NCBI GenBank assembly: GCA_030146615.1
Contig: JASLBL010000245.1
Location: forward strand, 1 to 58,678
DNA length: 58,678 nt
Direction of reading: 5' to 3'
DNA from: Actinomycetes bacterium
GTDB taxonomy: Bacteria > Actinomycetota > CALGFH01
Below the pieces are notes generated by a model, which was not told the origin of the DNA, did no database searches, and worked only from the letters and a program-made list of their open reading frames with translations. A program made the position numbers and the translations under genes. Within the stretch, counting starts at the first letter, position 1; the number at the start of each line of letters is the position of its first letter. Below are positions 1-13,296 of this stretch, piece after piece.

Positions 1-672
1 CCAGGGGTTGCTGGTCCCGGGCCGGCAGTTGTACCAGTTGTAGGCGTCGGCACCGATGTAGTCGAGGTAGGCCTCGCCGGGGTACCAGTCGATGGCCCGT
101 CGCCGGTCCTTCGCCTTGAAGCTGAAGGCGGTCATGATCCAGAGGTAGTCGGCGTTGGTGACCCCCTGGGCGCGGAAGACGGTGATCACTTTGCGCCAGG
201 CGGCGATGAAGTCGGCCCCGGTGCCGCTCGAGTTGAGGGTCGTCTCGGGCTCATGGTTGAAGGTGAAGTAGACGTGGTTGCCGAGCGACTTGACCCGGCC
301 GGCCCAGCGCACGATGTCGTTGTAGAGGGCCGAGCCCGGCTGGGCGTTGGCGATGTCGCGCCACTGCACGAAGGTGTGGTTGCGCCGCTCCGACTTGACC
401 GACAGCAGCAGGGTGTAGCCGTTGGCGTTGAACCAGTTGATGTCGGTGTCGGGGAACGGCGAGTCCCAGTTGTAGTAGATCCGGATGGTGGCGAGGCGGC
501 GGCCGATCTTGCTCTCCAGGGCGGTCGTGCCCTGCTGGGTGCCCGGCTCTGGCCGGGCCCCGAACAGCACCGTCGGGTCGTTCGGTCCGGCGCCGGCGGG
601 CGTGGCCAGGCCGGCCGAGGCCACGGCCAGCGACAGGACCAGCACGGTCAGCAGCCACACTCGCTTGCGCAT
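1..672 (-). CDS. secreted glycoside hydrolase, GH26 (beta-mannanase-like) family; 3' end cut by window edge
   Basis: Absent from the ORF track because it runs off the left edge. Reverse translation from ATG 672-670 gives MRKRVWLLTVLVLSLAVASAGLATPAGA (signal peptide), then IRIYYNWDSPFP, LLLSVK, LYNDIVRWAGRVKSLGNHVYFTFNHEPE, DWYPGEAYLDYIGADAYNWY. The pattern resembles GH26/COG4124 enzymes. Family call is by eye only. Confidence 0.5.
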   Translation of the reverse strand, partial: MRKRVWLLTVLVLSLAVASAGLATPAGAGPNDPTVLFGARPEPGTQQGTTALESKIGRRLATIRIYYNWDSPFPDTDINWFNANGYTLLLSVKSERRNHTFVQWRDIANAQPGSALYNDIVRWAGRVKSLGNHVYFTFNHEPETTLNSSGTGADFIAAWRKVITVFRAQGVTNADYLWIMTAFSFKAKDRRRAIDWYPGEAYLDYIGADAYNWYNCRPGTSNPW

Positions 673-751
673 CGTTTCCCCCTGAGGATGGACGTGTGGC
701 CAACGCTGCCCGAGCGCCGGACCGCCGGCAACGTGCGTTTGCCGTAGCGCC

Positions 752-1735
752 CTACGCCGGGTCCAGGTACCGGCGCTCGATGGTCGCCAGAACCGAGTAG
801 AACGGGTCGATCATGTTGCCGACCCGCAGCCGCCCGGCCTGGCCGAGCAGCTGGTAGGCGTCGGGCCGCGACAGCCCGTTGGACCGGTGGAGCCGCTCCA
901 CCAGGTCGGTGTAGGCGGCCCGGGCGCAGCTGGTCAGGTCGGCCCCGGAGAGGCCGGCCAGCGACCCGATCGCCTCGGCGGTGTCGAGCTGGGGCAGGGC
1001 CACGAACCCGGCCTCCTCGCGGTCGCGGGCCCGCATGGTGAGCTCGACCTCGGCCTCGATCTCGACGGCCACCCCGGTGATCTCGCCGTCGCCCTGAGCG
1101 CCGTGGGCGTCGCCGAAGGCGACCAGGGCGCCCTCGGTCTGCACGGGCAGGCGCAGGGTGGCCCCGGCGCACAGGCCCGGCTGGTCGACGTCGCCCAGGT
1201 ACTCGGGCGACTGGGAGAACGACAGGCGCCGCTCCCGGCGGGGGGCGACCCCGACCGTGCCCAGGAACGGCCGCAGCGGCAGGGCGACGGTGCGGCCGTC
1301 CCTGACCGGGAGGGCGGCCACGCCGTCGCGGTAGGGGACGCGGCGCAATTCGGCGGTGAGCGGCGGCTGGAGGCCGTAGCCCTCGTGCTGGAGGGCTCCG
1401 AAGCCGCCGAAGGTGCCCGTCCAGGCCTCGCCGGCGGCCGGGACCGGGTCGACCCGGTGCAGCTCGATCTCGACCACGCCGCCGGGCCGGGCCCCGGCCA
1501 GGTGGAACGGCCCGGTCACCGGGCAGGCGCCGCCGAGCCGCTCCAGCACCTCGTCGATGTGCAGCCCGGGCGCCGTCCAGGCGGCCGCCCCGGCCTCGCC
1601 GAGGCGGGCCTTGGCCAGCCCGCACAGGGAGTCGGCGGTCTCGACCACCACCCGCTCGCCGTCGGCCACCTCGGCCACCGGCTCGGCCTCGGGGTCGAAG
1701 AACAGGGTGGTCGCGGTCCGGGGGAACCGCCGCAT
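752..1735 (-). CDS. acetamidase/formamidase family protein (FmdA/AmdA-like)
   Basis: Last 327 residues of ORF 752..2089. ATG 1735-1733 overlaps the upstream stop (ATGA). Sequence runs MRRFPRTATTLFFDPEAEPV...VTGPFHLAGARPGGVVEIE...YLGDVDQPGLCAGATLRLPV...FGDAHGAQGDGEITGVAVE. The upstream part of the ORF is Arg/Pro/Gly junk. Confidence 0.8.
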   Translation of the reverse strand: MRRFPRTATTLFFDPEAEPVAEVADGERVVVETADSLCGLAKARLGEAGAAAWTAPGLHIDEVLERLGGACPVTGPFHLAGARPGGVVEIELHRVDPVPAAGEAWTGTFGGFGALQHEGYGLQPPLTAELRRVPYRDGVAALPVRDGRTVALPLRPFLGTVGVAPRRERRLSFSQSPEYLGDVDQPGLCAGATLRLPVQTEGALVAFGDAHGAQGDGEITGVAVEIEAEVELTMRARDREEAGFVALPQLDTAEAIGSLAGLSGADLTSCARAAYTDLVERLHRSNGLSRPDAYQLLGQAGRLRVGNMIDPFYSVLATIERRYLDPA

Positions 1736-2982
1736 CAGCCGCCGTCCCGCAGCGCCGCCGCGGCGTCCAGGAAGCACTCCAGGGGGGCCTTGAGGATGCC
1801 GGCCCCGATCTGGCCGCCGTCCTTGCCGGCCAGGCCGCCGTCGATCACCGGCACGACCCCGGTGGCCACCACCTTGTGGACGTCGATGCCGGTCGGGGTC
1901 CCCCGGAAGCCGAGGTAGGGGATCTTGAACTCGGGGTGCTCGCCGTGGGCGATGTCGTACATGGCCAGGTTGTTGGCGACCATGGCCTCGGGACCGCCGC
2001 CCTGGTAGGCCTGGAGGCCGAAGGCGGCCGCCTGGGCGAAGCCGCCGAGGCCGACCGTCTCGGTGATGTGGCTCTCGCCCCCGATCCACTGGATGTCGTC
2101 GGCGGTGAAGCCCTCGAACAGCTTGGCCTCGACGGTCGGGAGCGGCCCCCGGAACCAGTGCTGGCCGAGCCCGCTGACCCTGATGGCGTACTCCCGGCAG
2201 CTGATCGTCATGGCCGTGACCAGGCTGGAGCCAGGCACCCCGGCGGCCGCGTCGGCCAGGACCTTGGCCGCGGCCATGGAGCAGCGCAGGAAGAAGTAGT
2301 CGGCTCCGCGCAGGAAGGCGAGGGCGTCGCCGATCTCGTCCGACCAGCCGTCGCCGGCCAGCTCCAGCAGGGGCCCGAACAGCTCCCGGGTGAACAGCAG
2401 GGTGGCGGCGGTGTTGCGGCTGTGGAGCTCGTCGCCCATGTGCAGGGCGCGCCGGATCACCGGCACCAGCGCGATGCCGTCGGTGCGCCGCAGGGCCGCG
2501 CTCAGCAGCGGCCCCAGCGACCCGGCAAGGTAGTCGAGACCGCGCCGGACCTCGTCGTCGTAGACGCCGTAGTTGAGGCGCTTGCGGGACTCGCCCTCGT
2601 ACAGGTTGCAGAAGCCGCGGTTGCCGTAGCGGGCGCTCTCCACCACCAGCACCGGCATGGAGGCGGTGTAGATGCCGGCCACCGACCCGACGCAGCCGTG
2701 GTCATGGCAGGCGGCCAGCCGGATGCGGCCGGCCCGGATGGCTTCCTCGGCGTCCTCCGGGGTCGCGGCCAGCTCCTCGTAGACGGCGGCGTGGAGGATG
2801 GCCCGGCGCTGGCCGCCGTGGTAGGCCTCCCAGGGCAGGGGGGCGCCCGAGGTGAGGATCGTGTCGGCGGTCATGCCCGGCACGGCCTCGCCGGCCGGGC
2901 GGACGTCGACCAGCACCGGGTCGGCCGACGTGAGCCGGGTGAACGCCTCCTGGTTGGCCGCGACGGCTCGGGTGGTGGTCAC
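1735..2982 (-). CDS. DUF1116 family protein (E. coli YlbE/AllG-like)
   Basis: GTG 2982 is preceded by GGGAGGA. Conserved blocks match my recollection of YlbE-type DUF1116 proteins: TASMPVLVVES..GNRGFCNLYEG, HMGDELHSRN, LVTAMT..YAIRVSGLGQHWF, GESHITETVGLGG, GGQIGAGILKAPLECF. The stop overlaps the formamidase start. Confidence 0.8.
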   Translation of the reverse strand: MTTTRAVAANQEAFTRLTSADPVLVDVRPAGEAVPGMTADTILTSGAPLPWEAYHGGQRRAILHAAVYEELAATPEDAEEAIRAGRIRLAACHDHGCVGSVAGIYTASMPVLVVESARYGNRGFCNLYEGESRKRLNYGVYDDEVRRGLDYLAGSLGPLLSAALRRTDGIALVPVIRRALHMGDELHSRNTAATLLFTRELFGPLLELAGDGWSDEIGDALAFLRGADYFFLRCSMAAAKVLADAAAGVPGSSLVTAMTISCREYAIRVSGLGQHWFRGPLPTVEAKLFEGFTADDIQWIGGESHITETVGLGGFAQAAAFGLQAYQGGGPEAMVANNLAMYDIAHGEHPEFKIPYLGFRGTPTGIDVHKVVATGVVPVIDGGLAGKDGGQIGAGILKAPLECFLDAAAALRDGG

Positions 2983-2993
2983 CTCGTCCTCCC

Positions 2994-4373
2994 TCACCAC
3001 AGGTGCAGGTAGCGCTCGCGCTCCCACTCGCCGACAACGGTGTTGTACTCGCGCCATTCGTCGCGCCGGACGCGGGCGTAGGTGGCGTGCAGCTCGGGCC
3101 CGAACACCTCCTTGGCCAGGGGGTCGTCCTCGAACTCGTCGACCGCCTCGCCGAGGGTGGCCGGGACCCGGCGGACCCCGGACGCCTGGAGCTCCTCGTC
3201 CCCGACGCTGTAGGTGTCGACGTTGACCGGGTCGCCGGCCTTGAGCCGCCGCGAGATCCCGTCCAGGCCGGCGGCCAGGGTGATGGCCGCCCCCAGGTAG
3301 AAGTTGCAGGCGCTGTCGGCGATGCGCAGCTCCAGGCAGCGCCGGTTCATGGGCAGCCGGCACATCAGGGTGCGGTTGTTGTGGCCGTAGGCCCGGTACA
3401 CCGGGGCCCAGGAGATCTCGTTCATCAGCCCGCGGGGCAGCATCCGCTTGTAGGAGTTGACCGTCGGGCAGACCACGGCGGTGATCGCCCCGGCGTGCTC
3501 CAGGACCCCGGCGGTGAACTGGTAGGCCAGCTCGGTGTAGCCGCGGTCGGGCCGCTCGCCGACCCCCTGGGCGCCCGGCTCGCCGCCCTCGGCCTGGAAC
3601 AGGTTGGCCCCACTGGCGGGGTCGGCCAGGCTCAGGTTGTAGTGGGCGCCCGACCCGAACGCCTCCGACCACGGCTTGGGCATGAAGGTGGCGATGCAGC
3701 CGAGGGTGCGGGCGACGTGCTTGGCCAGCAGCCGGAACACCACCATGCGGTCGGCCATGGCCAGGGCGTCGGTGTAGCCGAAGTCGAACTCGTACTGGCC
3801 GTCGCCGCCCTCGTGGTCGAAGGAGTAGACGTCCCAGCCGAGCTCGTCCAGGTAGGTGACCATGGGCCCGAGGAAGGCGTCGGCGAGCATGGTCGCCTCC
3901 AGGTCGTAGCCCCGGGTCGGCTGGTTGTCGAGGTCGGAGGCGACGAACGGGAGCCAGCGGCCGTCGACCTGGCGCAGCACGTACACCTCGGGCTCGACGC
4001 CCATCCTGGGCAGGTAGCCCATGGCGGCCGCGGCCTCCATCTGGCGGCGCAGGACCCGGCGGGAGTCGTGGCTGTAGGGCTGGCCGTGGAAGTACAGGTC
4101 GGCCGCGGCCAGGGCGTAGCGGGTGTCCCAGGGCAGCACGGTCAGGCTGTCCAGGTCGGGGATGCTGACGCACTCGTCCTCGTTGGGCCCGAGCTTGCCC
4201 ATCCCCTCGAGCGCCCCCACGGTGTAGAGCTCGGAGCCGGCGGCCATGTCCTCGAAGTGGGCCAGGGGCACGCACTTGGACTTGGGGACGCCGTTCAGGT
4301 CGGTGTAGGCCCCGAACACGTACCGCACCCCGGCCCCCTCCAGCCGCCGCCGCGCCTCCTGCACCTCGGTCAT
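2994..4373 (-). CDS. glutamine synthetase family protein (GlnA-paralog / gamma-glutamyl-amine ligase type)
   Basis: ATG 4373, 459 aa. GS catalytic-domain blocks are FDHEGGDGQYEFDF, FMPKPW..FGSGAHYNLSL, PTVNSYKR, NRTLMCRLP..RCLELRIADSACNFYL. The substrate cannot be called from sequence. Confidence 0.85.
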   Translation of the reverse strand: MTEVQEARRRLEGAGVRYVFGAYTDLNGVPKSKCVPLAHFEDMAAGSELYTVGALEGMGKLGPNEDECVSIPDLDSLTVLPWDTRYALAAADLYFHGQPYSHDSRRVLRRQMEAAAAMGYLPRMGVEPEVYVLRQVDGRWLPFVASDLDNQPTRGYDLEATMLADAFLGPMVTYLDELGWDVYSFDHEGGDGQYEFDFGYTDALAMADRMVVFRLLAKHVARTLGCIATFMPKPWSEAFGSGAHYNLSLADPASGANLFQAEGGEPGAQGVGERPDRGYTELAYQFTAGVLEHAGAITAVVCPTVNSYKRMLPRGLMNEISWAPVYRAYGHNNRTLMCRLPMNRRCLELRIADSACNFYLGAAITLAAGLDGISRRLKAGDPVNVDTYSVGDEELQASGVRRVPATLGEAVDEFEDDPLAKEVFGPELHATYARVRRDEWREYNTVVGEWERERYLHLW

Positions 4374-4396
4374 CTCCGGATCTCCTCGCTCGCCGC

Positions 4397-5404
4397 CTAG
4401 CCGGTGGTCGCCTGGTAGCGCAGGACTCTGCCGCCGCCCACGGTCATCAGCACCCCGCGCAGCACGCCCTCGCCGTACTCGGAGCCGGCGTTGACGGCCA
4501 GGGTCCGGCCCAGCCGCGCCGTCCCGCCCGACTCGTGGATGTGGCCGTGCAGGCTGACCAGCGGCTGGTGGCGCTCGATGGCCTCCCGGACGGCGGTCGA
4601 CCCGACCGGGGCGGTGACCTCGCCGCCCATCGAGGTCCGCACCTTGAGGTCCTGGCCGAGCAGGGGGGCCGTGTCCAGGCGCGAGTCGTACGGCGGGACG
4701 TGCGCGTTGAACAGGGCCCCGGCCGGGTTGGCGAGCCCGGCGGCCAGGTCGTCGAGCCGCTCGGCGATGGCCTCCTCGGGGTACTCGCGCGGGGTGTTCC
4801 ACGGGGTCTTGTTGGTCCAGCCGGTGGTCAGCAGCTCGTGACCGGGGGCGACCTCGACGATCTCCCCCTCGGCCAGCGTCACCCGCTCGCCGCCGTGCTC
4901 GCGGAGCACGTCGTCGACCAGCCAGGGGTCGTCGTTGCCGGGGGCGGTGAGGATGCGGACCGCCGAGCCGTCCAGCCGCTCGTTGGCGTGCCGCAGCCAG
5001 CGACGCAGGGTCTCGGTCATCAGCTCGGCGAACAGCGCCTCGACGGCGTCGGGGTGGTCCTGGAGGTGCTGGTGCTCGTCGGGGGTCATGCGCCTGGTGT
5101 AGCTGCCGGCCACCCGGGACCGGCGCTCCAGCTCGGCCGCGCCGGCCTCGTCCAGCAGCCGCCGCCGGCCGTGGACCCAGGCCTCCCAGCGCCCGCCCGG
5201 CCGCTCGACCAGGGGGACGACCAGCTTGCCGGTGAGGTCGCCGCCCAGCACCAGCAGGTCGGCGCCGTAGAAGCCGGCCGCGGCGACGAACTTCTTGAAG
5301 CAGGTCTCCGACCCGTGCAGGTCGGTGGCGAAGAAGATGGTGGTCGCGTCCGGGTCGGCCCCCGGCTTGCGGCTGTTCGCCCGGCGCCGCCGCAGCAGGC
5401 CCAC
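4397..5404 (-). CDS. metallophosphoesterase (calcineurin-like)
   Basis: GTG 5404 directly abuts the upstream stop (TGAGTG). Motifs: FATDLHG (DxH), VLGGDLTG (GD), TAPGNDD (GN-D/H-D/E position), LHGHIHES (GHxH). Confidence 0.8.
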   Translation of the reverse strand: MGLLRRRRANSRKPGADPDATTIFFATDLHGSETCFKKFVAAAGFYGADLLVLGGDLTGKLVVPLVERPGGRWEAWVHGRRRLLDEAGAAELERRSRVAGSYTRRMTPDEHQHLQDHPDAVEALFAELMTETLRRWLRHANERLDGSAVRILTAPGNDDPWLVDDVLREHGGERVTLAEGEIVEVAPGHELLTTGWTNKTPWNTPREYPEEAIAERLDDLAAGLANPAGALFNAHVPPYDSRLDTAPLLGQDLKVRTSMGGEVTAPVGSTAVREAIERHQPLVSLHGHIHESGGTARLGRTLAVNAGSEYGEGVLRGVLMTVGGGRVLRYQATTG

Positions 5405-6190
5405 TCAGTACACCGCCTCGCGGTCGTCGACGTCCTGCCACCACTGCATCCGCTCCCCCACCCGGGCCCGGGCCCGCCAGCGGACCGACTTGGGCGCGGC
5501 CTGGATCGCGGCCAGGAGCGCGCCGGCCCGCTCGGCGACGGTGGCGGCGCCGTTGCCGGCCACCGGCTCGCCGAGGGCGGCCAGGTTGGCGGTGGCGGTG
5601 TGGTGAAAGCCCCAGTCCCTGGCCAGGAGGCCGGCCACGTAGCCGGCGTCGATGGCCTCGCCGGCGCCCTCCTCCGGCGCCGGCCCGGGCGCGACCGGGT
5701 GGGTGGCCAGGAGCGCGGCCGCGTCCATCCGGTCGGTGACCGTCTGGCGGACGATCTGGAGCTTCTGGAGCAGGAGGTCCTCCACCGGCAGGGTCAGCTC
5801 GCGGGCCCCGAGCCGGTCGCGCAGCTCGATCGTGTGGCAGAACTCGAGGCGGTCGACGAACACGTCCAGCTCCAGGCCGCTGCCCGGGTGGCGGAAGGAG
5901 AAGCGGCGGCCCTCCATGGCCACCAGCAGGTCCCGATCGATCTCCCAGCCCCGCTCCTCCAGCAGGCGCCGCAGCCCCTTGCGGTCCTCGTGACGGCAGA
6001 CGACGTCGATGTCCTTGGCCGGGCGGCCGAGCCGGTCGAGGGCGGCCGCGGCCGGCGGGCAGTGCAGCCGGATGCCGGTGGAGCCGACCAGCCGGAGCAG
6101 GTGCCCGCGGGCCGCGGCCTCGTCGACCAGGGCGACCGCCTCCTCGTGGACCGCCGCCCAGCCGGGTCGGGGCGCCTGCCCAGCCACCAT
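5405..6190 (-). CDS. nucleotidyltransferase-fold protein, function unknown
   Basis: ATG 6190-6188 overlaps the permease stop (ATGA). LRLVGSTG ... AKDIDVV gives the G-S ... D-x-D signature of minimal nucleotidyltransferases. The rest of ORF 5405..6586 upstream is junk. Confidence 0.55.
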   Translation of the reverse strand: MVAGQAPRPGWAAVHEEAVALVDEAAARGHLLRLVGSTGIRLHCPPAAAALDRLGRPAKDIDVVCRHEDRKGLRRLLEERGWEIDRDLLVAMEGRRFSFRHPGSGLELDVFVDRLEFCHTIELRDRLGARELTLPVEDLLLQKLQIVRQTVTDRMDAAALLATHPVAPGPAPEEGAGEAIDAGYVAGLLARDWGFHHTATANLAALGEPVAGNGAATVAERAGALLAAIQAAPKSVRWRARARVGERMQWWQDVDDREAVY

Positions 6191-7818
6191 CACTCGATCG
6201 GGATCTGCCGGAAGGCGAGGTCGACGTCGATGCCCTGCCGGCGCCGGTACAGCCGGGTGCCGAGGAACCAGGCCAGGCCGGCGACGACGATGCCGAGCAC
6301 CATCCAGAATTCCCGCGACGCCGAGCCCAGGGTGAACATGGGGCCAGCGGCGATGGGGTCGTTCCAGAGCAGGAACAGCACAAGGGCGAAGAAGGCCAGC
6401 GAGATGGCCGCGGTCACGACCATCACCGGCACCCCGCCGACCTTCGAGGTTGCCGCCGGGGAGGCCTGGAACAGCTCGCGGCGGGTCCGGGGGAACAGGA
6501 TCGCCGCCACCATGGCCGCCCCCCAGACCACCACCAGGGCCTCGATCAGGCTCAGGAAGGCGATGTTGCGGTAGGCGATCAGCCACATGAACACGACCGC
6601 CCCGGCAGTCGACAGGCCGATGGCCACCACCGGGGTGTGGAACCGCTGGCTGACGTAGCCGAGCCGGTCGGGGGCCAGCCGGTCGAAGGACCAGGCGATC
6701 ATCGTGCGGGTGGTGTAGGCCAGCTCGGCCGGCACCCAGAACCAGATCCAGGCCACGAAGGTGGCCATGATCACCGTGGCCAGCAGCACGTTGCTGGTCA
6801 GGATCCCGGCCAGCACGGTGAACCAGGGCGAGGCCCCGACCGAGGCCTCGGTGGAGCCGTCGGCGATCCCGGAGATCGAGTTGAAGCCGATGGCGCCCTG
6901 GAACTCGTACCCGAACGCCTTGGCGGCCAGGCCGTCGAACAGGGCGATCAGCAGCCCGGTGGCCGCGACCGCGCCCAGCATGCCGAACAGCTGGGAGCGG
7001 CGGACCCGCTTGACCTCGCCGCCCAGCCCGATCGACTGCACGGCCCCGAGCAGCGGCAGGAGCGGGAAGACCAGGAACTGGATCGAGGTCCCCAGGTTGA
7101 AGCTGCCGGTCTGGTAGCCGTTCTCCTTGGCGGTGGCGATCACGCCGGCGTAGTCGAGCCCGGTCAGCTCCTTGAGGTTGGCCTGGAAGGTGGCCCGGCT
7201 GCCCAGCAGCAGCACCGCCACCAGCACCAGGGTCCCGGCCACGGCCAGGACGAACAGCACCTTCTGGACCGAGAAGTAGCGGCGGGTGCCGGTGGCCAGC
7301 AGCAGCCCGGCCGCCACCAGCACGGCCGTGCCGATCCAGAAGACCCCGCTCGGCTCGCTGGTGGTGGCGGCCCAGTCGAGCAGGGTGCGGTTGCCGGCCA
7401 CCACCCCGACGGTGGCCAGGAACGACGACAGCCCGACCTTGACGATCAGTGAGGCCGCGAAGGCGGCGTAGTAGAGCAGGATCACCGTCTCGACCAGCGA
7501 GCCGACGAAGGCGAAGCCGGGGCTGAGGCCGCGCGACAGCGACACGTAGACGCCGCCCGAGCGGGGGAAGATCACCGACCAGAAGTAGAAGGTGGCCGCG
7601 ACGGCCAGCATGCCCGCGGCCGCCAGCAGGGTCGACAGCCAGACGCCGGCCCCCGGGTAGAGGCTGGGGCCGTAGTACTGGTTGAGGGCGATCGCGATCC
7701 CCACCGAGACCAGCCCGACGTTGTAGATGAAGACGTCGGCCGACCCCGCCACCCGGATCAGCCCCGACGCCGGCCGGGAGAAGACCCCGCGGCCGGCCAG
7801 ATCGGCCTGTTGCGCCAC
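6190..7818 (-). CDS. APC superfamily amino acid/amine permease
   Basis: Roughly 12 hydrophobic spans with APC-like sequence throughout. The start is placed at GTG 7818, with GGAGG 7 nt upstream. The TTG at 7899 is less likely because a TTGACA -35 box lies inside that extension. Confidence 0.8.
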   Translation of the reverse strand: MAQQADLAGRGVFSRPASGLIRVAGSADVFIYNVGLVSVGIAIALNQYYGPSLYPGAGVWLSTLLAAAGMLAVAATFYFWSVIFPRSGGVYVSLSRGLSPGFAFVGSLVETVILLYYAAFAASLIVKVGLSSFLATVGVVAGNRTLLDWAATTSEPSGVFWIGTAVLVAAGLLLATGTRRYFSVQKVLFVLAVAGTLVLVAVLLLGSRATFQANLKELTGLDYAGVIATAKENGYQTGSFNLGTSIQFLVFPLLPLLGAVQSIGLGGEVKRVRRSQLFGMLGAVAATGLLIALFDGLAAKAFGYEFQGAIGFNSISGIADGSTEASVGASPWFTVLAGILTSNVLLATVIMATFVAWIWFWVPAELAYTTRTMIAWSFDRLAPDRLGYVSQRFHTPVVAIGLSTAGAVVFMWLIAYRNIAFLSLIEALVVVWGAAMVAAILFPRTRRELFQASPAATSKVGGVPVMVVTAAISLAFFALVLFLLWNDPIAAGPMFTLGSASREFWMVLGIVVAGLAWFLGTRLYRRRQGIDVDLAFRQIPIE

Positions 7819-7852
7819 CGCCCTACCTCCTCGGACAACGTTTGCCGGGGTC

Positions 7853-7881
7853 GGCTTATCAGGGGTGGGTTTGGATGTCAA
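7853..7881 (-). promoter_or_regulatory. candidate promoter of the permease operon
   Basis: Minus-sense TTGACA (7881-7876), 17-nt spacer, TAAGCC (7858-7853), about 35 nt upstream of GTG 7818. It sits in the AT-richer divergent region 7819..7973 shared with the Lrp gene. Confidence 0.35.
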
Positions 7882-7973
7882 CGCGGGTCGATCGCTCAAG
7901 GTCGAAAAGCGACCTAAAAGGCGGTTAGATGGTTGAATATCGAACCGAACCCCGAGGGCCTGGGAGGCGGCGG

Positions 7974-8438
7974 ATGCAGCGGAGCAGGGGGCCGGTGGAT
8001 GAGGTGGACCGGGAGATCATCCGGTTGCTGCAGCGGGACGGGCGGACCAGTAACACCGATATCGCCAGGGCGCTGGAGGTGACCGAGACGACGATCCGCA
8101 AGCGGATCGCCCGGCTGATCGACGAGGACCTGGTGAACGTGGTGGCGGTGCCGACGCCGCGGGCGGTGGGGATGACCCTGTCGGCGATCATCGGGATCTC
8201 GGTGCAGCTGCCCAGCCTCCAGGCGGTGTCGGAGCGGCTGGTGGCCTACCCCGAGGTGCGATACGTGGGGATCGCGACCGGGCGCTACGACATCATCGTC
8301 GAGTCGTTCTTCAACGACCACGAGCACCTGCTGGAGTTCGTCTCCCGCAAGCTGGGGGCGCTCAAGGGGGTGACCGGCGCCGAGACCAGCCTGATCCTCA
8401 AGGTGGCCAAGTTCTCCTATGAGTGGGAGATCCCCTGA
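7974..8438 (+). CDS. Lrp/AsnC family transcriptional regulator
   Basis: ATG 7974 is preceded by GGGAGG. HTH segment: DREIIRLLQRDGRTSNTDIARALEVTETTIRKRIARL. It is followed by an AsnC-type ligand domain. Divergent from the permease operon. Confidence 0.85.
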   Translation: MQRSRGPVDEVDREIIRLLQRDGRTSNTDIARALEVTETTIRKRIARLIDEDLVNVVAVPTPRAVGMTLSAIIGISVQLPSLQAVSERLVAYPEVRYVGIATGRYDIIVESFFNDHEHLLEFVSRKLGALKGVTGAETSLILKVAKFSYEWEIP

Positions 8439-8444
8439 GGGCGC

Positions 8445-9620
8445 TCAGCCGAGCTTGGTCAGGGCCCGGCGAAGGTTGCGGACGCCCTGGCCGATGCGCT
8501 GCTCGTTCTCGATCAGGGCGAAGCGCACGTGGCCGTCGCCGCCCGGGCCGAAGCCGACGCCCGGGGAGGTGGCCACCTTGGCCTCCTTGACCAGCATGGA
8601 GGCGAACTCGACCGAGCCCAGCTCCCGGTAGGGCTCGGGGATCGGCGCCCAGACGAACATGGTCCCCTTGGGCGGCTCGACCTCCCAGCCGATCCGGGCC
8701 AGCCCGTCGCAGAGGGCGTCGCGGCGCGACTGGTAGACCGCCTGGGCCCGCTCAGGGTGGTCGGGATCCTCGTTCAGGGTCACGGTGGCGGCGATCTGGA
8801 TCGGCTGGAAGGCGCCGTAGTCGAGGTAGGACTTGAGCTTGGCCAGGGCCTGCACGACCTCGGCCTTGCCGACCAGATACGCCATGCGCCAGCCGGCCAT
8901 GGAGAAGGCCTTGGTCATCGAGTACAGCTCGACCGCGCACTCCTTGGCCCCGTCGGCCTGGAGGATCGAGGGCGGACGGAAGCCGTCGAAGCCGAGCTCG
9001 GCGTAGGCGTTGTCGTGGACCAGCAGAACCTCGTTCTCGCGGGCGAAGTCGACCATCCGCTGCATGAAGGCCAGGTCGACGCAGGTGGTCGTCGGGTTGT
9101 GGGGAAACGAGAGCACGATCACCCGGGGCCGGGGCCAGGAGAAGCGGTAGGCCTGCTGGACGTTCCCGAAGAAGTCCTCGCCGGTGCCGACCGGGATCTC
9201 GCGGACCTCGGCCCCGGCGAACAGCGGCCCCCAGATGTGGATGGGGTACGACGGCGACGGCACCAGGGCGGCGTCGCCCGGCTGGAGCAGCACCCACATC
9301 AGGTGGGAGAAGCCCTCCTTGGCTCCGATGGTGGTGATCGCCTCGGTCTCGGGGTCCAGGTCCACCCCGAAGCGCCGCCGGTAGAGGTCGGCCACGGCCT
9401 GACGCAGCTTGGGGATGCCCCGGCTGGCCGAGTAGCGGTGGTTACGGGGGTTGCGGACAGCCTCACAGAGCTTGTCGACGGCCGTCGGGGGCGAGGGCAG
9501 GTCGGGGTTGCCGAAGCCGAGGTCGATCACGTCCTCGCCGGCCCGCCTGGCCGCCACCTTGAGCCCGTCGATGATGGTGAAGACGTACGGCGGCAGGTTC
9601 GTGATCCGGCGGAACTCCAC
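8445..9620 (-). CDS. class I/II pyridoxal-phosphate aminotransferase (AlaA/AspC-like)
   Basis: GTG 9620 gives VEFRRITNLPPYVFTIIDGLK. Also GFGNPD and the PLP-lysine block YSMTKAFSMAGWRMAY. The N-terminal 157 aa of ORF 8445..10091 are junk. Confidence 0.85.
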   Translation of the reverse strand: MEFRRITNLPPYVFTIIDGLKVAARRAGEDVIDLGFGNPDLPSPPTAVDKLCEAVRNPRNHRYSASRGIPKLRQAVADLYRRRFGVDLDPETEAITTIGAKEGFSHLMWVLLQPGDAALVPSPSYPIHIWGPLFAGAEVREIPVGTGEDFFGNVQQAYRFSWPRPRVIVLSFPHNPTTTCVDLAFMQRMVDFARENEVLLVHDNAYAELGFDGFRPPSILQADGAKECAVELYSMTKAFSMAGWRMAYLVGKAEVVQALAKLKSYLDYGAFQPIQIAATVTLNEDPDHPERAQAVYQSRRDALCDGLARIGWEVEPPKGTMFVWAPIPEPYRELGSVEFASMLVKEAKVATSPGVGFGPGGDGHVRFALIENEQRIGQGVRNLRRALTKLG

Positions 9621-9957
9621 GGGCAACCCCCATCTGGCAGAGCGTGAAGCTGGAAGCCTACCCGCTCGAGGGAACCAGACCGCCGGGGCCGGTGCCCGTC
9701 CTACCGGCCGGGGGTGCCGGTCCGGGAGGTGGTCGGCCAGGGGCACGTGCTCACCGGCGCCGACGGCGGCTACCGGTTCCAGAGCGACCCGCCCGAGCAC
9801 ATCCACATGCTCGTCTCGGCCGAGGGGTTCGAGCCGCTGGCCAGCAACCGCTACCACCCCGAGGGCAGGTCTGCCGGCCGCTTCGACGTCCTGCTCACGC
9901 CGGCCCGGTCCTGACGGTTGGCGGGTGGCGGCGGCCCTCGGGTAACGTCCTGCCCTT

Positions 9958-10779
9958 GTGAAGGACCCGATCTCGCCGATGGAGTGGCATCCCGGCCCCG
10001 GGGCGGAGGAGCTCATCCGCCGCAAGGCGCAGCTCCACGTGCTCTCCAAGGAGCTGCTGGACCGCGAGCGCGGCCTGGCCGCCTTCCGCAACGAGCTGCA
10101 CGCCTTCGAGACCAGCTACCGCAAGGCGCTCGGCTCCCGCTACGCCCGGCTCGACGAGCTGGCCGAGCGGCTGGACGAGACGGCCGCGCCCGGCCAGGAC
10201 CCCGGGCAGCCCGATCCCGACGGCGACGACCCGGCCGAGCGCTACCCCGGCCAGGGCGTGCCCGGCGGCCAGAACTGGGCCTGGGGGGAGCGCGAGCCGG
10301 ACAGGGAGCCGGAGCGGCGGCCGGTGATCGGCGACGAGGCCAAGCGGCTGTTCCGCCAGCTGGCCCGCCTCATCCATCCCGACCTGGCCGGCGACCCCAA
10401 GGAGCGGGAGCGGCGGACCAACCTGATGGTGGCGGCCAACGACGCCTACGAGCAGGGCGACGTGGCCGCCCTGGAGCGCATGCTGGCCGACTGGCACGCC
10501 AGCCCCGAGGCCGTGACCGGCAGCGGGGCCGCGGCCGAGCTGGAGCGGACGCTGCGCCGCATCGCCCAGGTCGAGGCGGGCATCAAGCGGATCGACGAGG
10601 AGCTGGCCGAGCTGGAGGCCTCGGCCATGGGCTGGCTGCGGCGCCGGGTCGAGAAGGCCGCCCACGAGGGCTGGGACCTGCTGGCCCACATGGTCAGGGA
10701 GCTGGACCGACAGATCGGCGAGGCGCAGCTGGAGCTCGAGCGCCGGGCGGCCACGGCCACCGCCGGAGCGTGGGAATAG
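9958..10779 (+). CDS. J-domain (DnaJ-like) protein with flanking coiled coils
   Basis: GTG start. AKRLFRQLARLIHPDLAGDPKERERRTNLMVAANDAYEQGD contains the HPD tripeptide. There is no G/F or zinc-finger region. Flanking segments are heptad-like and charged. Confidence 0.7.
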   Translation: MKDPISPMEWHPGPGAEELIRRKAQLHVLSKELLDRERGLAAFRNELHAFETSYRKALGSRYARLDELAERLDETAAPGQDPGQPDPDGDDPAERYPGQGVPGGQNWAWGEREPDREPERRPVIGDEAKRLFRQLARLIHPDLAGDPKERERRTNLMVAANDAYEQGDVAALERMLADWHASPEAVTGSGAAAELERTLRRIAQVEAGIKRIDEELAELEASAMGWLRRRVEKAAHEGWDLLAHMVRELDRQIGEAQLELERRAATATAGAWE

Positions 10780-10843
10780 GGCCGCCCTCGCTGGGGTACG
10801 GTTGCGGCGACGCAGCCCCTGCGGACGACGGGGTGTGGGCACC

Positions 10844-12315
10844 ATGGCCAGGGACATCCAGGGCGGGCCCGGAGAGGCTCCCGACCACGGCGCGGTCGCG
10901 ACCACGTTCCCGACGAAGCACCTGCCGCCGGTCACCTACCGCGACATGCCCGAGCCGCTGTCGCTGCGCAAGGTCCTCGGCCCGGGCGTGATCGCGGCCG
11001 GGATCGGGCTGGCCTCGGGCGAGTTCATCCTCTGGCCCTACATCACCTCCCAGGTCGGGCTCGTCTTCCTGTGGGCCGCGCTCGTCGGGGTGGTGACCCA
11101 GTTCTTCATCAACATGGAGTCGAGCGCTACACCCTGGCCACCGGCGAGACCGCCCTGACCGGGTTCAGCCGCTACTGGAAGCACTGGGGGCTGTTCTTCG
11201 CCGTGCTGACCTTCCTGGCCAACGCCTGGCCGGGGTGGATCACCAGCTCGGCCACGCTGGTCACCTTCATCTTCGGCGGCGGCAACGTGAAGCTGCTGGC
11301 CATCCTCGGGCTGGCCTCGATCGCCATCGCCCTGACCATGGCCCCGGTGGTCTACACCATGGTCGAGCGGATCGAGTTCTTCAAGGTCGGGATCATCCTG
11401 TTCTTCATCGTGGTCGCCATCGCCACCGCGATCACCGCCGAGGCCTGGGGCGCCCTGCCAGACGCGGTCACCAACTTCGGCCGCCTGCCCGCGGGCCTGC
11501 CCCTTGCCCTGGTCCTGCCGGCTCTGGCCTTCGCCGGGGCGGGGGGCGGCCAGAACCTGGTCCAGAGCAACTGGATGCGCGACAAGGGCTACGGCATGGG
11601 GGTCCACATCCCCCGGCTGGCCTCGCCGGTCACCGGCGAGCCCGAGGCCGCCCCGGGCACCGGCTACACCTTCCGCGAGGACGAGACCAACCTGGCCCGC
11701 TGGAAGGGCTGGTGGGACGTTGCCAACAAGGAGCAGCTGGTCAGCTTCGTGGCCATCACGATCGTCACCATCGCGCTGATGTCGATGCTGGCCTACTCGA
11801 CCGTGTTCGGCGCCGAGGCCGAGAACAACATCACCTTCCTGGAGGCCGAGGGCAACGTCCTCAAGGACACCGTCGGGACCTGGTTCGGCTACCTGTTCTG
11901 GATCATCGGCGCGACCTCGCTGTTCGCCGCCGCCCTCGGGATCGTCGACTACACCTGCCGGCTGGTCGCCGACGTGCTCAAGGTCAGCTACCTGCGCGAG
12001 AACGAGACCTGGACCGAGAGCCGCATCTACTTCCTGCTGGTCTGGCTGCTGGTCGTCTGGAGCGCGATCATCCTGCTGACCATCCAGTCGCAGCCGCTGA
12101 TCCTGCTGATCATCTCCGCCTCCATCGGCGGGTTCATGATGTTCGTCTACTCGGGCCTGCTGATCCTGATCAACAAGCGGTCGCTGCCGCCCTCGGTCCG
12201 GATCAACGGCTTCCGCACGGCGACCATGATCTGGTCGGTGCTGCTGTTCGGGACCGCCTCGGCGATCGCCATCAGCGACCAGTGGGACAACATCAAGGAG
12301 CTGTTCGGCCTCTAA
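10844..12315 (+). pseudogene. Nramp-family divalent metal transporter, interrupted by a 1-nt frameshift near 11119/11120
   Basis: ORF 10802..11158 carries the N-terminus (GPGVIAAGIGLASGEFILWPYITSQVGLVFLWAALVGVVTQFFINME). ORF 11071..12315 continues in the -1 frame (ERYTLATGETALTGFSRYW...). Inserting one base after ATGGAG restores FFINMEIERYTLATGE and a protein of about 490 aa. Confidence 0.7.
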
Positions 12316-12324
12316 GCCGGCCCG

Positions 12325-12411
12325 ATGTACCGGTTCCTGCTCACGGTGGCCATCGCCCTGGTGATCTGGGCGTTGCTGGCGGGGCTGGCCGCCCTGCTCG
12401 GGTTCCTGTAG
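12325..12411 (+). CDS. possible 28-aa hydrophobic micro-protein
   Basis: ATG 12325 gives MYRFLLTVAIALVIWALLAGLAALLGFL, ending at TAG. It lies 9 nt after the Nramp stop and 9 nt before the cupredoxin ATG. No clear SD. Confidence 0.25.
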   Translation: MYRFLLTVAIALVIWALLAGLAALLGFL

Positions 12412-12420
12412 AACCTGCGC

Positions 12421-12843
12421 ATGCGCCGCGCCGCCGATCGACCGCGTCCCAACCCGGTCTGGTTCCTGGTCGTGGTGGTGATGGTCGGCCTGGCGGTGGC
12501 CGGCCCGGTGATCATGGTCCGGGACCAGGCCGGCGACGACACACCAGCGGCCCCCTCGGCCGCCGAGGGGGCGCTGCCGGCGGCGGAGGCGGCGGCCGGC
12601 GGGAGCACGGTGAAGATGGCCGGGCTCGCCTTCGCCCCCGGGACCCTGACGGTGGCCAGGGGCACGACGGTCGTCTTCGACAACGACGACACCGCCCCCC
12701 ACACGGTCACGGCCCGCTCCGGCGGCGTCGACTCGGGCGTGCTCGACCCGGGCCGCCAGTTCAGCCTGGCCGTCACCGAGGGCTTCGACTACTTCTGCAG
12801 CATCCACCCGAGCATGACCGCCAACATCGCCGTGACCGGCTGA
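12421..12843 (+). CDS. membrane-anchored cupredoxin (plastocyanin/amicyanin-like type-1 copper protein)
   Basis: N-terminal TM segment VWFLVVVVMVGLAVAGPVIMV. Type-1 Cu ligand pattern: APHTV ... YFCSIHPSM (His, Cys, His, Met). Confidence 0.8.
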   Translation: MRRAADRPRPNPVWFLVVVVMVGLAVAGPVIMVRDQAGDDTPAAPSAAEGALPAAEAAAGGSTVKMAGLAFAPGTLTVARGTTVVFDNDDTAPHTVTARSGGVDSGVLDPGRQFSLAVTEGFDYFCSIHPSMTANIAVTG

Positions 12844-12855
12844 CCAGGAGGCCTG

Positions 12856-13296
12856 GTGGACGTCATCGAGCTCCTCAACGACCTGACGGGCGGCCAGCTG
12901 CTGCTCTGGAAGGTGCTGCTGACCTCCGTGATCTTCGCCTGCGCGGGCCTCCAGGTGCTGCTGGCGGCCCGCTTCTACGAGGCCAGCACGGTGCCGCCCA
13001 TCTCCACCGGAGCGGCCTCGCGAACCCACCGCCTGAACGGGAAGCTGACCGTCACCCTGGCCGTCGTGGTGGCGCTGTCGTGCCTGGCCGGCCCGGCCGG
13101 GCCGACCTCCCCGACCCGGGTCCTGCTCCACTCGGTGTTCGGGAGCCTGGTCTTCGGCCTGCTCGCGGCCAAGTACACCGCGCTCAAGCTACGGCCGGCC
13201 TGGGGCCGCTTCCTGCCGTGGATCGGCAGCGGCCTGTTCCTGACCTTCGCCGCCATCTGGGCCACCAGCGTGGCCGACTACGCCACCGCGAGGTAG
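12856..13296 (+). CDS. four-span membrane protein (DUF6529-like?)
   Basis: GTG 12856 is preceded by AGGAGG. Four hydrophobic spans. It sits between two cupredoxin genes. The family name is from memory and is uncertain. Confidence 0.6.
   Translation: MDVIELLNDLTGGQLLLWKVLLTSVIFACAGLQVLLAARFYEASTVPPISTGAASRTHRLNGKLTVTLAVVVALSCLAGPAGPTSPTRVLLHSVFGSLVFGLLAAKYTALKLRPAWGRFLPWIGSGLFLTFAAIWATSVADYATAR

Follow-up and report, generated by a model that had tools for sequence, protein, structure and literature searches.

What does a bacterium gain from an operon that joins a glutamine synthetase (GS)-like ligase to a DUF1116 protein, an amidase, a metallophosphoesterase (MPE), a nucleotidyltransferase (NTase) and a permease? 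The question is raised by a stretch of 58,678 nt from an Actinomycetes bacterium (CALGFH01; assembly GCA_030146615.1, contig JASLBL010000245.1, positions 1-58,678), hereafter the window, in which these six genes lie intact on the minus strand between 752 and 7818, facing the gene of an Lrp/AsnC-family regulator. The sequence-only reading, made from the letters without any database, had proposed an uptake-plus-degradation (or salvage) route for a nitrogenous compound and had found no catabolic pathway to which it could be assigned. Both proposals are supported: the genes are co-conserved, and no characterised pathway matches them. Our full-text literature search gave no described match, that is, no GS–DUF1116 pair, no link of DUF1116 or AllG to a GS-like ligase, and nothing relevant on gamma-glutamyl-urea or gamma-glutamyl-guanidine. 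We propose that the ligase and the DUF1116 protein form a core that probably drives an undescribed, ATP-dependent use of a small nitrogen compound.

DUF1116 homologues number thousands, the best 120 of them being at least 66% identical. Relatives 58-94% identical to the window protein are spread across Actinomycetota, Proteobacteria, Chloroflexi, Gemmatimonadota and other phyla. A scan of 185,579 species genomes gave about 420 matching stretches; the best 80 of the 420 confirmed stretches, joined to our context look-ups, make a set of 82 unique loci in which gene presence was counted by tblastn (the GS-like gene being scored at 40% identity or more within the locus). The carriers are mainly Actinomycetota, chiefly soil metagenome-assembled genomes (MAGs) but also Geodermatophilus sabuli and G. 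ruber; further ones belong to Gamma- and Alphaproteobacteria, Gemmatimonadota, Chloroflexi, Rokubacteria, Dormibacterales and Acidobacteriota. A GS-like gene accompanies DUF1116 in 68 of the 82 loci and is its immediate neighbour in 52. The permease, NTase and MPE genes are all found in 40 loci (any one of the three in 44), and five of the six genes—GS-like, DUF1116, permease, NTase and MPE—stand together in 39. The FmdA-like amidase occurs in 24-26, an Lrp homologue (at least 50% identity) in 41, mostly divergent from the permease or the GS gene, and the complete seven-gene layout in 18. Besides, a second gene order exists, GS-MPE-permease-NTase-[redoxin]-PNPOx-DUF1116, with about 45% identity to the first, and the pairwise identities of DUF1116 are correlated with those of the GS-like ligase (r=0.81), MPE (0.96), NTase (0.90) and permease (0.91). 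Since the genes co-occur across loci and their identities vary together, they are co-inherited, and the neighbourhood check that could have refuted the sequence-only reading does not do so.

Not all members of the set are bound to it in the same way. The GS–DUF1116 pair is found alone with the regulator gene in minimal Lrp-GS-DUF1116 operons (e.g. locus L001), and elsewhere it is accompanied by ABC, second-APC or NCS1 transporters that replace the permease of the window. The invariant core consists of the GS-like ligase and DUF1116, rather than of all six genes. The amidase is optional, a PuuD-like Peptidase_C26 taking its place in some loci, and the NTase and MPE track the permease, not the ligase: both are nearly confined to loci with this permease. 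At the scale of the phylum the GS-linked type of DUF1116 is a patchy accessory module, met in a sample of 201 genomes only in the window's own genus (three of the eight genomes sampled).

Two cultured strains, G. sabuli DSM 46844 and G. ruber DSM 45317 (loci L068 and L083), carry two GS–DUF1116 pairs per locus, about 9 kb apart, with Rieske oxygenase, reductase, LuxR, NCS1 and alcohol dehydrogenase (ADH) genes between or around them.

The ligase (2994-4373, minus strand, 459 aa) matches Gln-synt_C (PF00120) over its full length with 293 bits, above the cut-off. Its best NCBIfam model, TIGR03105, is missed marginally (456.4 bits versus a cut-off of 469.6), whereas it remains far from TIGR00653 (270 versus 429); its best PDB matches are the glutamate-methylamine ligase 9QUR (315 bits) and 7CQL, GmaS of Rhodovulum, which place it in the GmaS/GSIII clade. 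The roles of the GmaS residues are known from the structure, as is the requirement of the ammonium site of true GS for Asp50', Ser53' and a flap Glu (PMC7948447). The window ligase, like every DUF1116-linked homologue, retains the catalytic Asp177, Glu186 and Arg312 (RhGmaS numbering; here D186, E195 and R334). It also keeps Tyr147, Lys30' and the flap Trp (Trp300) of GmaS, and its residues for metal, ATP and glutamate (E138/E140, H-E188, E195, H, the NSYKR motif and R334) all have counterparts in the aligned structures of GmaS and GS. At the ammonium positions it has Thr51 and Ala54 for Asp50' and Ser53', and Trp322 for the flap Glu, whereas the GlnA1-like paralogue of the same genome (contig C83) has D, S and E. 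From these residues the enzyme is not a true glutamine synthetase. Nor is it a canonical methylamine ligase: Gln175 and Asn188, present in both solved GmaS, are replaced by Ser184 and Asp197, and both replacements are invariant in the DUF1116-linked clade.

The whole pocket signature of the window ligase, K33/T51/A54/Y156/Y183/S184/D186/E188/E195/D197/F198/W322/R334, is found as K-T-A-Y-[YHF]-S-D-E-E-D-F-W-R, invariant in nearly all DUF1116-linked ligases of all context types, while the five other GS paralogues of the window's genome show different patterns. Because these positions do not vary across the clade down to 44% overall identity, they argue for one common substrate of the DUF1116-linked ligases, predicted to be neither ammonia nor, probably, methylamine.

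In six loci (L059, L061, L064, L072, L077 and L082) a DUF1116 about 58-63% identical to that of the window lies beside a different GS-like family, or without any GS-like gene, and is accompanied by luciferase-like monooxygenase and short-chain dehydrogenase/reductase (SDR) genes. This other GS-like family is 27-31% identical and has the pocket K-[VM]-R-Y-E-A-H-E-E-T in two copies out of three; it looks like a third pairing ("type C") of DUF1116 with a GS-like ligase.

The partner of the ligase, the DUF1116 protein (1735-2982, minus strand, 415 aa), matches the Pfam AllG family (PF06545) with 238 bits, above the cut-off, and its fold and sequence are close to those of YlbE (PDB 3CLQ: 38% identity, E = 4.6e-78, TM 0.89). 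In a fold comparison with known enzymes 3CLQ, a structure to which no function is assigned, was the sole match, which gives no mechanistic lead. It is the best-conserved gene of the cluster, with invariant polar residues of the kind seen in enzymes, and shares with AllG and 3CLQ the blocks GDExHxRN and SxITETxGxGG. A universal Cys nucleophile was considered and rejected, Cys125 being a Thr in 3CLQ. Canonical AllG proteins are 40-47% identical to the GS-linked DUF1116, versus at least 58% inside the GS-linked group, and on these identities the latter is a separate clade. The first function of a DUF1116 protein was described in 2024, AllG being one of the three subunits of oxamate carbamoyltransferase; in E. 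coli AllFGH phosphorolyses the acyl-urea oxalurate into oxamate and carbamoyl phosphate, and all three subunits are required (PMC11326118).

The window's genome has three DUF1116 genes, one of them being the copy of the window. The canonical trio FdrA(AllF)-DUF1116(AllG)-DUF2877(AllH) is kept on contig C168 (about 5164-12893), where the DUF1116 is 44-45% identical and the AllH is the only one of the genome; a third DUF1116, 38-40% identical, follows directly an argininosuccinate-lyase-like gene on contig C617 (2004-3794). The C168 trio is preceded by a nucleobase-type permease and followed by a cyclase-family hydrolase and an ornithine-cyclodeaminase-like gene. The C617 copy also comes after a D-cysteine-desulfhydrase/ACC-deaminase-like gene, a further partner context for DUF1116.

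How could a ligase and a DUF1116 protein act together? The explanation we favour, which we hold tentatively and a little short of an even chance, is that the region forms a single operon, associated with Lrp/AsnC, by which one small nitrogen compound, X, is taken up and assimilated at the expense of ATP. The permease would import X or a close precursor. The ligase would phosphorylate glutamate and couple its gamma-carboxyl to X (H2N-Z) through an amino or amido nitrogen, and DUF1116 would then split the conjugate at its N-Z bond, either with phosphate or with water, leaving glutamine; the template for this step would be AllG in oxamate carbamoyltransferase, which splits an acyl-urea. Finally the FmdA-like amidase, where present, or the PuuD-like hydrolase of other loci would regenerate glutamate, unless the amidase acts directly on the same amide, as a route of low affinity. 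A ligase followed by a plain hydrolase would be a futile cycle; therefore, in the two-gene operons, DUF1116 would have to cut another bond than the one made by the ligase. For X we consider compounds of the type H2N-C(=O/NH)-R: urea and short-chain amides head the list, and a guanidine-type compound is a further candidate. This type is favoured because of the AllG precedent (cleavage of the carbamoyl-N bond of an acyl-urea), because the upstream hydrolases yield urea or formamide, and because the amidase family acts on short amides.

The genes around the loci, which we clustered and annotated with Pfam and NCBIfam, point to guanidino, ureido or amide nitrogen. Arginase/agmatinase-family genes are found in 14 loci and belong to the operon in L030, L045, L050 and L065; 15 such genes were observed in 50 loci for 1.08 expected from genome-wide counts, an excess that carries no phylogenetic correction. 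A creatinase-like M24 hydrolase occurs in 16 loci, joined there by an Lrp gene and a second APC permease, and creatininase, DUF1989, NCS1 permeases, PucR-type regulators, Rieske oxygenases, TetR regulators and ABC transporters are other recurrent neighbours. The core would be served by exchangeable feeders, the picture being modular. In L021 (11202-12002) and L041 the cluster ends, after DUF1116 or GS, with the PuuD-like Peptidase_C26 (a gamma-glutamyl hydrolase of the class-I amidotransferase-like kind), exactly at the position of the window's FmdA-like amidase.

The genome of the window has four arginase-family genes, which is also the median of the carriers; those of L012, L013, L014, L030 and L080 have 13-23 each, the gammaproteobacterial L012-L014 also having several urease copies, and these five carriers look like guanidino-compound specialists.

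Several observations weigh against the explanation that we favour. Many of the loci are MAG fragments and the neighbourhood counts are phylogenetically non-independent. The substrate X is a candidate reached by inference; the nitrogen of urea is a weak nucleophile for a reaction of the GS type, and the acidic pocket predicted for the ligase would suit a cationic amine or a guanidinium equally well. The model gives the NTase and the MPE no defined role. HAAT-type ABC neighbours, considered as Urt urea transporters, score far under the Urt equivalog cut-offs, and no riboswitch for guanidine or another ligand was detected with Rfam in positions 1-12000 of the window and in seven proteobacterial loci. 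The idea that carriers are bacteria devoid of urease was rejected as well: urease is more frequent in the carriers (19 of 51) than in the phylum sample (31 of 201 genomes). The window's own family is the exception, and there the absence speaks for the explanation: urease was found in none of the 14 genomes sampled, and the urea-carboxylase cut-off was reached in none of 21. The last difficulties concern DUF1116 itself. Neither AllF (FdrA) nor AllH was found in 84 loci by tblastn with the genome's own FdrA and AllH as queries, nor was a carbamate kinase seen in the loci, yet AllG of E. coli requires both AllF and AllH, and its individual role within AllFGH is not established (PMC11326118).

The strongest competitor is a classical gamma-glutamylation of an alkylamine (methylamine, ethylamine, ethanolamine or a polyamine), in which DUF1116 would modify or handle the alkyl part and the FmdA-like amidase or Peptidase_C26 would free glutamate, in the manner of PuuA/PuuD, IpuC/IpuF or GlnA2-4. 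The nearest solved relatives of the ligase are indeed glutamate-methylamine ligases, whose catalytic Asp177, Glu186 and Arg312 it retains; its acidic pocket fits a cationic amine, a PuuD-like hydrolase does follow DUF1116 in L021 and L041, and the L050 operon includes PotD-type ABC transporters and agmatinase-like genes. However, it differs from both solved GmaS by two invariant changes in the pocket, its TIGR03105 score is slightly under the cut-off, and no oxidase, dehydrogenase or gene of the N-methylglutamate pathway is among the conserved partners. Moreover, the two-gene operons would be futile cycles, and the sole known biochemistry of DUF1116 involves an acyl-urea. We consider an alkylamine rather unlikely.

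The comparison with described systems follows the same lines. Several nitrogen-scavenging pathways begin with a GS-like ligase. GmaS (7CQL, 9QUR), which performs the first step of the N-methylglutamate pathway, shares with the window ligase its fold, its clade and the absence of Asp50'/Ser53', but the window enzyme has Ser and Asp at Gln175 and Asn188, its TIGR03105 score stays below the equivalog cut-off, and its partner is DUF1116 where GmaS is associated with the genes of N-methylglutamate synthase and dehydrogenase; none of these was found in the window operon nor among the annotated recurrent neighbour families of 84 loci. PuuA/PuuD, IpuC/IpuF, GlnA2-4 of Streptomyces and the GS-like plus GATase-like pairs acting on aniline or naphthylamine likewise rely on an ATP-driven, GS-like entry step with a dedicated transporter and regulator. 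These gamma-glutamylation systems use a class-I amidotransferase-like hydrolase, whereas here the obligatory partner is DUF1116, oxidoreductases are missing from the set, and an NTase and an MPE are added. With the AllF-AllG-AllH carbamoyltransferase the window shares a full-length AllG homologue and its conserved blocks, but this homologue is paired with a GS-like ligase, without AllF and AllH. Lastly, the fmd genes of Methylophilus and the mycobacterial amd genes encode amidases of the same Pfam family, in a small-amide or urea context with a dedicated transporter; the window amidase is short in comparison (327 aa), far under the score of the formamidase equivalog, and optional in its cluster.

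If the ATP-dependent assimilation of X is taken one step further, with urea or a short amide as X, ligase and DUF1116 would constitute a third route of urea (or short-amide) use that is roughly ATP-neutral. Glutamate, ATP and urea would give gamma-glutamyl-urea, an N-acyl-urea that may be regarded as analogous to oxalurate, and its phosphorolysis by DUF1116 would give glutamine and carbamoyl phosphate, the latter being replaced by an acyl phosphate if the substrate is formamide or acetamide. In this precise form the proposal is improbable. Were it true, the route would fix both nitrogens with no release of free ammonia and would save the energy stored in the amide bond. In a broader view, DUF1116 would then be a module to be combined with enzymes producing or consuming acyl phosphates and weak amide nucleophiles.

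One may also ask if the GS-like protein truly assimilates ammonia, as an enzyme of the GSIII/GlnT type, recovering the NH3 that the amidase and other hydrolases release, with DUF1116, NTase and MPE as regulators, the last two resembling GlnE or GlnD. The TIGR03105 family bears the name type III glutamate-ammonia ligase, no residue that binds ATP, metal or glutamate is lost, and an NTase with a phosphoesterase formally resembles a pair that adds and removes a nucleotidylyl group. Besides, the ligase has a conserved Tyr388, which we take to stand at the position of the adenylylation-site Tyr397 of GS. This Tyr was considered as a target of the NTase and MPE, but it is equally conserved in loci without these genes, which makes the comparison uninformative. 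A GlnE- or GlnD-type switch on the ligase is not supported, neither protein being among the top 50 fold matches of the NTase, the nearest of which are small-molecule and tRNA nucleotidyltransferases, and the Tyr being kept with or without the NTase. The absence of Asp50', Ser53' and the flap Glu required for ammonium (PMC7948447), the association of NTase and MPE with the permease and not with the ligase, and the fact that the supposed regulator DUF1116 is the most conserved gene, with enzyme-like invariant polar residues, further make ammonia assimilation quite improbable.

A biosynthetic cluster for a gamma-glutamyl or carbamoyl-glutamine-type metabolite (an osmolyte or a signal), which NTase and MPE would tailor and the permease would export, is very improbable: the NTase does resemble small-molecule nucleotidyltransferases, and some carriers are Ectothiorhodospiraceae-like, a group from which N-carbamoyl-glutamine amide, listed among bacterial compatible solutes, is known, but what recurs beside the core is importers (ABC binding proteins, APC, NCS1) and hydrolases of catabolism, the regulators belong to catabolic types (Lrp, TetR, PucR, GntR), the carriers are mostly soil actinomycetes and scaffold-building genes are absent.

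The analysis adds an invariant pocket signature, a modular feeder arrangement in which the excess of arginase genes is quantified, the finding that Peptidase_C26 stands in for Fmd in some loci and that NTase and MPE are linked to the permease, and the paralogy of DUF1116 within one genome. The locked pairing of GS-like ligase and DUF1116 across phyla would mark a nitrogen pathway widespread in soil bacteria. Identifying its substrate would annotate thousands of genes now called "glutamine synthetase" or "hypothetical" and clarify the chemistry of AllG-type proteins, and it might reveal a new, energy-conserving use of nitrogen derived from urea, amides or guanidino compounds.

Conserved catalytic motifs, and for the NTase a confident fold model too, support the family assignments of the NTase and MPE, which the assimilation of X leaves without a place. 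The NTase (5405-6190, minus strand, 261 aa) has the G[SG]...DxD...D signature of the Pol-beta superfamily, G36-S37, D60-x-D62 and D109 being invariant. Its score for NTP_transf_5 is below the cut-off (24 bits) and a sequence-profile search of the PDB gave no match; its AlphaFold model (pLDDT 90.5) finds as nearest Foldseek neighbours 5UVD, a fungal NTase-like protein, the toxin MenT1, the lincosamide adenylyltransferase LnuA and ANT(2'')-Ia, the last three with a probability of 1.0 but a TM of only 0.4-0.6. The MPE (4397-5404, minus strand, 335 aa), a divergent one, only reaches weak, sub-threshold matches to Metallophos, Metallophos_2 and Metallophos_3, and marginal ones in a profile search of the PDB, with a weak contact with 2YVT and MPPED2. 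It has nonetheless all five calcineurin-like metal-binding motifs (DxH, GD, GN[HD], H, GHxH): DLHGS, GGD, PGNDD, NxHVPP and LHGHIHE are conserved in 38 homologues, and D28-x-H30, G54-G55-D56, G156-N157-D158-D159, N233-x-H235 and H286-G287-H288-x-H290 are invariant or nearly so in alignments of 14 and 38 sequences. Because both genes are linked to the permease, they would control import or serve an importer-specific step; a nucleotidylyl on/off switch or such a step is the most likely role.

The permease itself (6190-7818, minus strand, 542 aa from a GTG at 7818) is APC-superfamily-like. It scores 15.3 bits for AA_permease versus a cut-off of 24.6, this weak match spanning residues 66-547 of the long open reading frame (ORF); its length (542-548 aa in homologues) and hydrophobic profile are compatible with a permease of 12 transmembrane segments. 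The amidase (752-1735, minus strand, 327 aa), last gene of the operon, belongs to the FmdA/AmdA family (PF03069, 72 bits versus a cut-off of 27) but obtains only 32 bits for the formamidase equivalog NF045496, whose cut-off is 500. Its nearest PDB entries are the uncharacterised "acetamidases" 5UBU and 2II1, the formamidase 2WKN being reached only with E = 3e-4. The divergent regulator (7974-8438, plus strand) is above the cut-offs for both the HTH_AsnC-type domain (56.9 bits) and AsnC_trans_reg (50.1 bits). Its likely start is ATG 7974, preceded by GGGAGG, which gives 154 aa, or 169 aa if translation starts at 7929.

As for the layout of the operon, the window has a G+C content of about 73%, which renders raw ORF lists noisy; however each of the six frames has a third-position G+C (GC3) of 0.98-0.99 and a length in agreement with its homologues, and re-reading the junctions from the sequence bears out the six coupled minus-strand genes first described. 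NTase and MPE meet at TGAGTG without gap, MPE and GS are separated by 23 nt with GGAG inside, and GS and DUF1116 by 11 nt with GGGAGGA inside, all as announced. For the remaining two junctions the sequence-only reading had placed ATGA overlaps at 6190 and 1735; the coordinates stand but the motif does not, the sequences being GTGATG and TGATG, with stop/start overlaps of 1 nt (at 6190 the overlap would be of 4 nt, GTGA-type, if GTG 6193-6191 is the start). Upstream, the GTG of the permease lies seven bases downstream of the Shine-Dalgarno sequence GAGGAGG. These coupled junctions argue for a single transcription unit. A consensus scan detected no sigma-70 promoter and no convincing internal terminator, and the promoter and terminator scans, together with the fold of the 3' end, gave nothing above chance.

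Between the permease and the regulator extends a putative divergent promoter/operator region of 155 bp (7819-7973), for which the earlier description proved right: it is richer in AT (60.6% GC versus 73.4% across the operon) and contains a TTGACA on the minus strand (7881-7876). A palindrome-like CCTCGGACAACGTT/AACGTTTGCCGGGG is also found there, at 7829-7850. The control of the operon by Lrp may be proposed from the conserved divergent adjacency of the two.

The genes flanking this ensemble appear foreign to it. On the regulator side, an alanine-transaminase-like aminotransferase (8445-10091, minus strand) is open for 548 aa, of which about 411 aa (8445-9680) match the family, the long N-terminal extension being probably an artefact of the high GC content; it adjoins the cluster only in the closest relative, L007, and thus lies outside it. 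Downstream of the amidase, a secreted glycoside-hydrolase-like gene with a signal peptide (1-672, minus strand) is truncated by the edge of the window; its homologue in L003 gives a weak match to GH26, and the gene is apparently unrelated to the operon.

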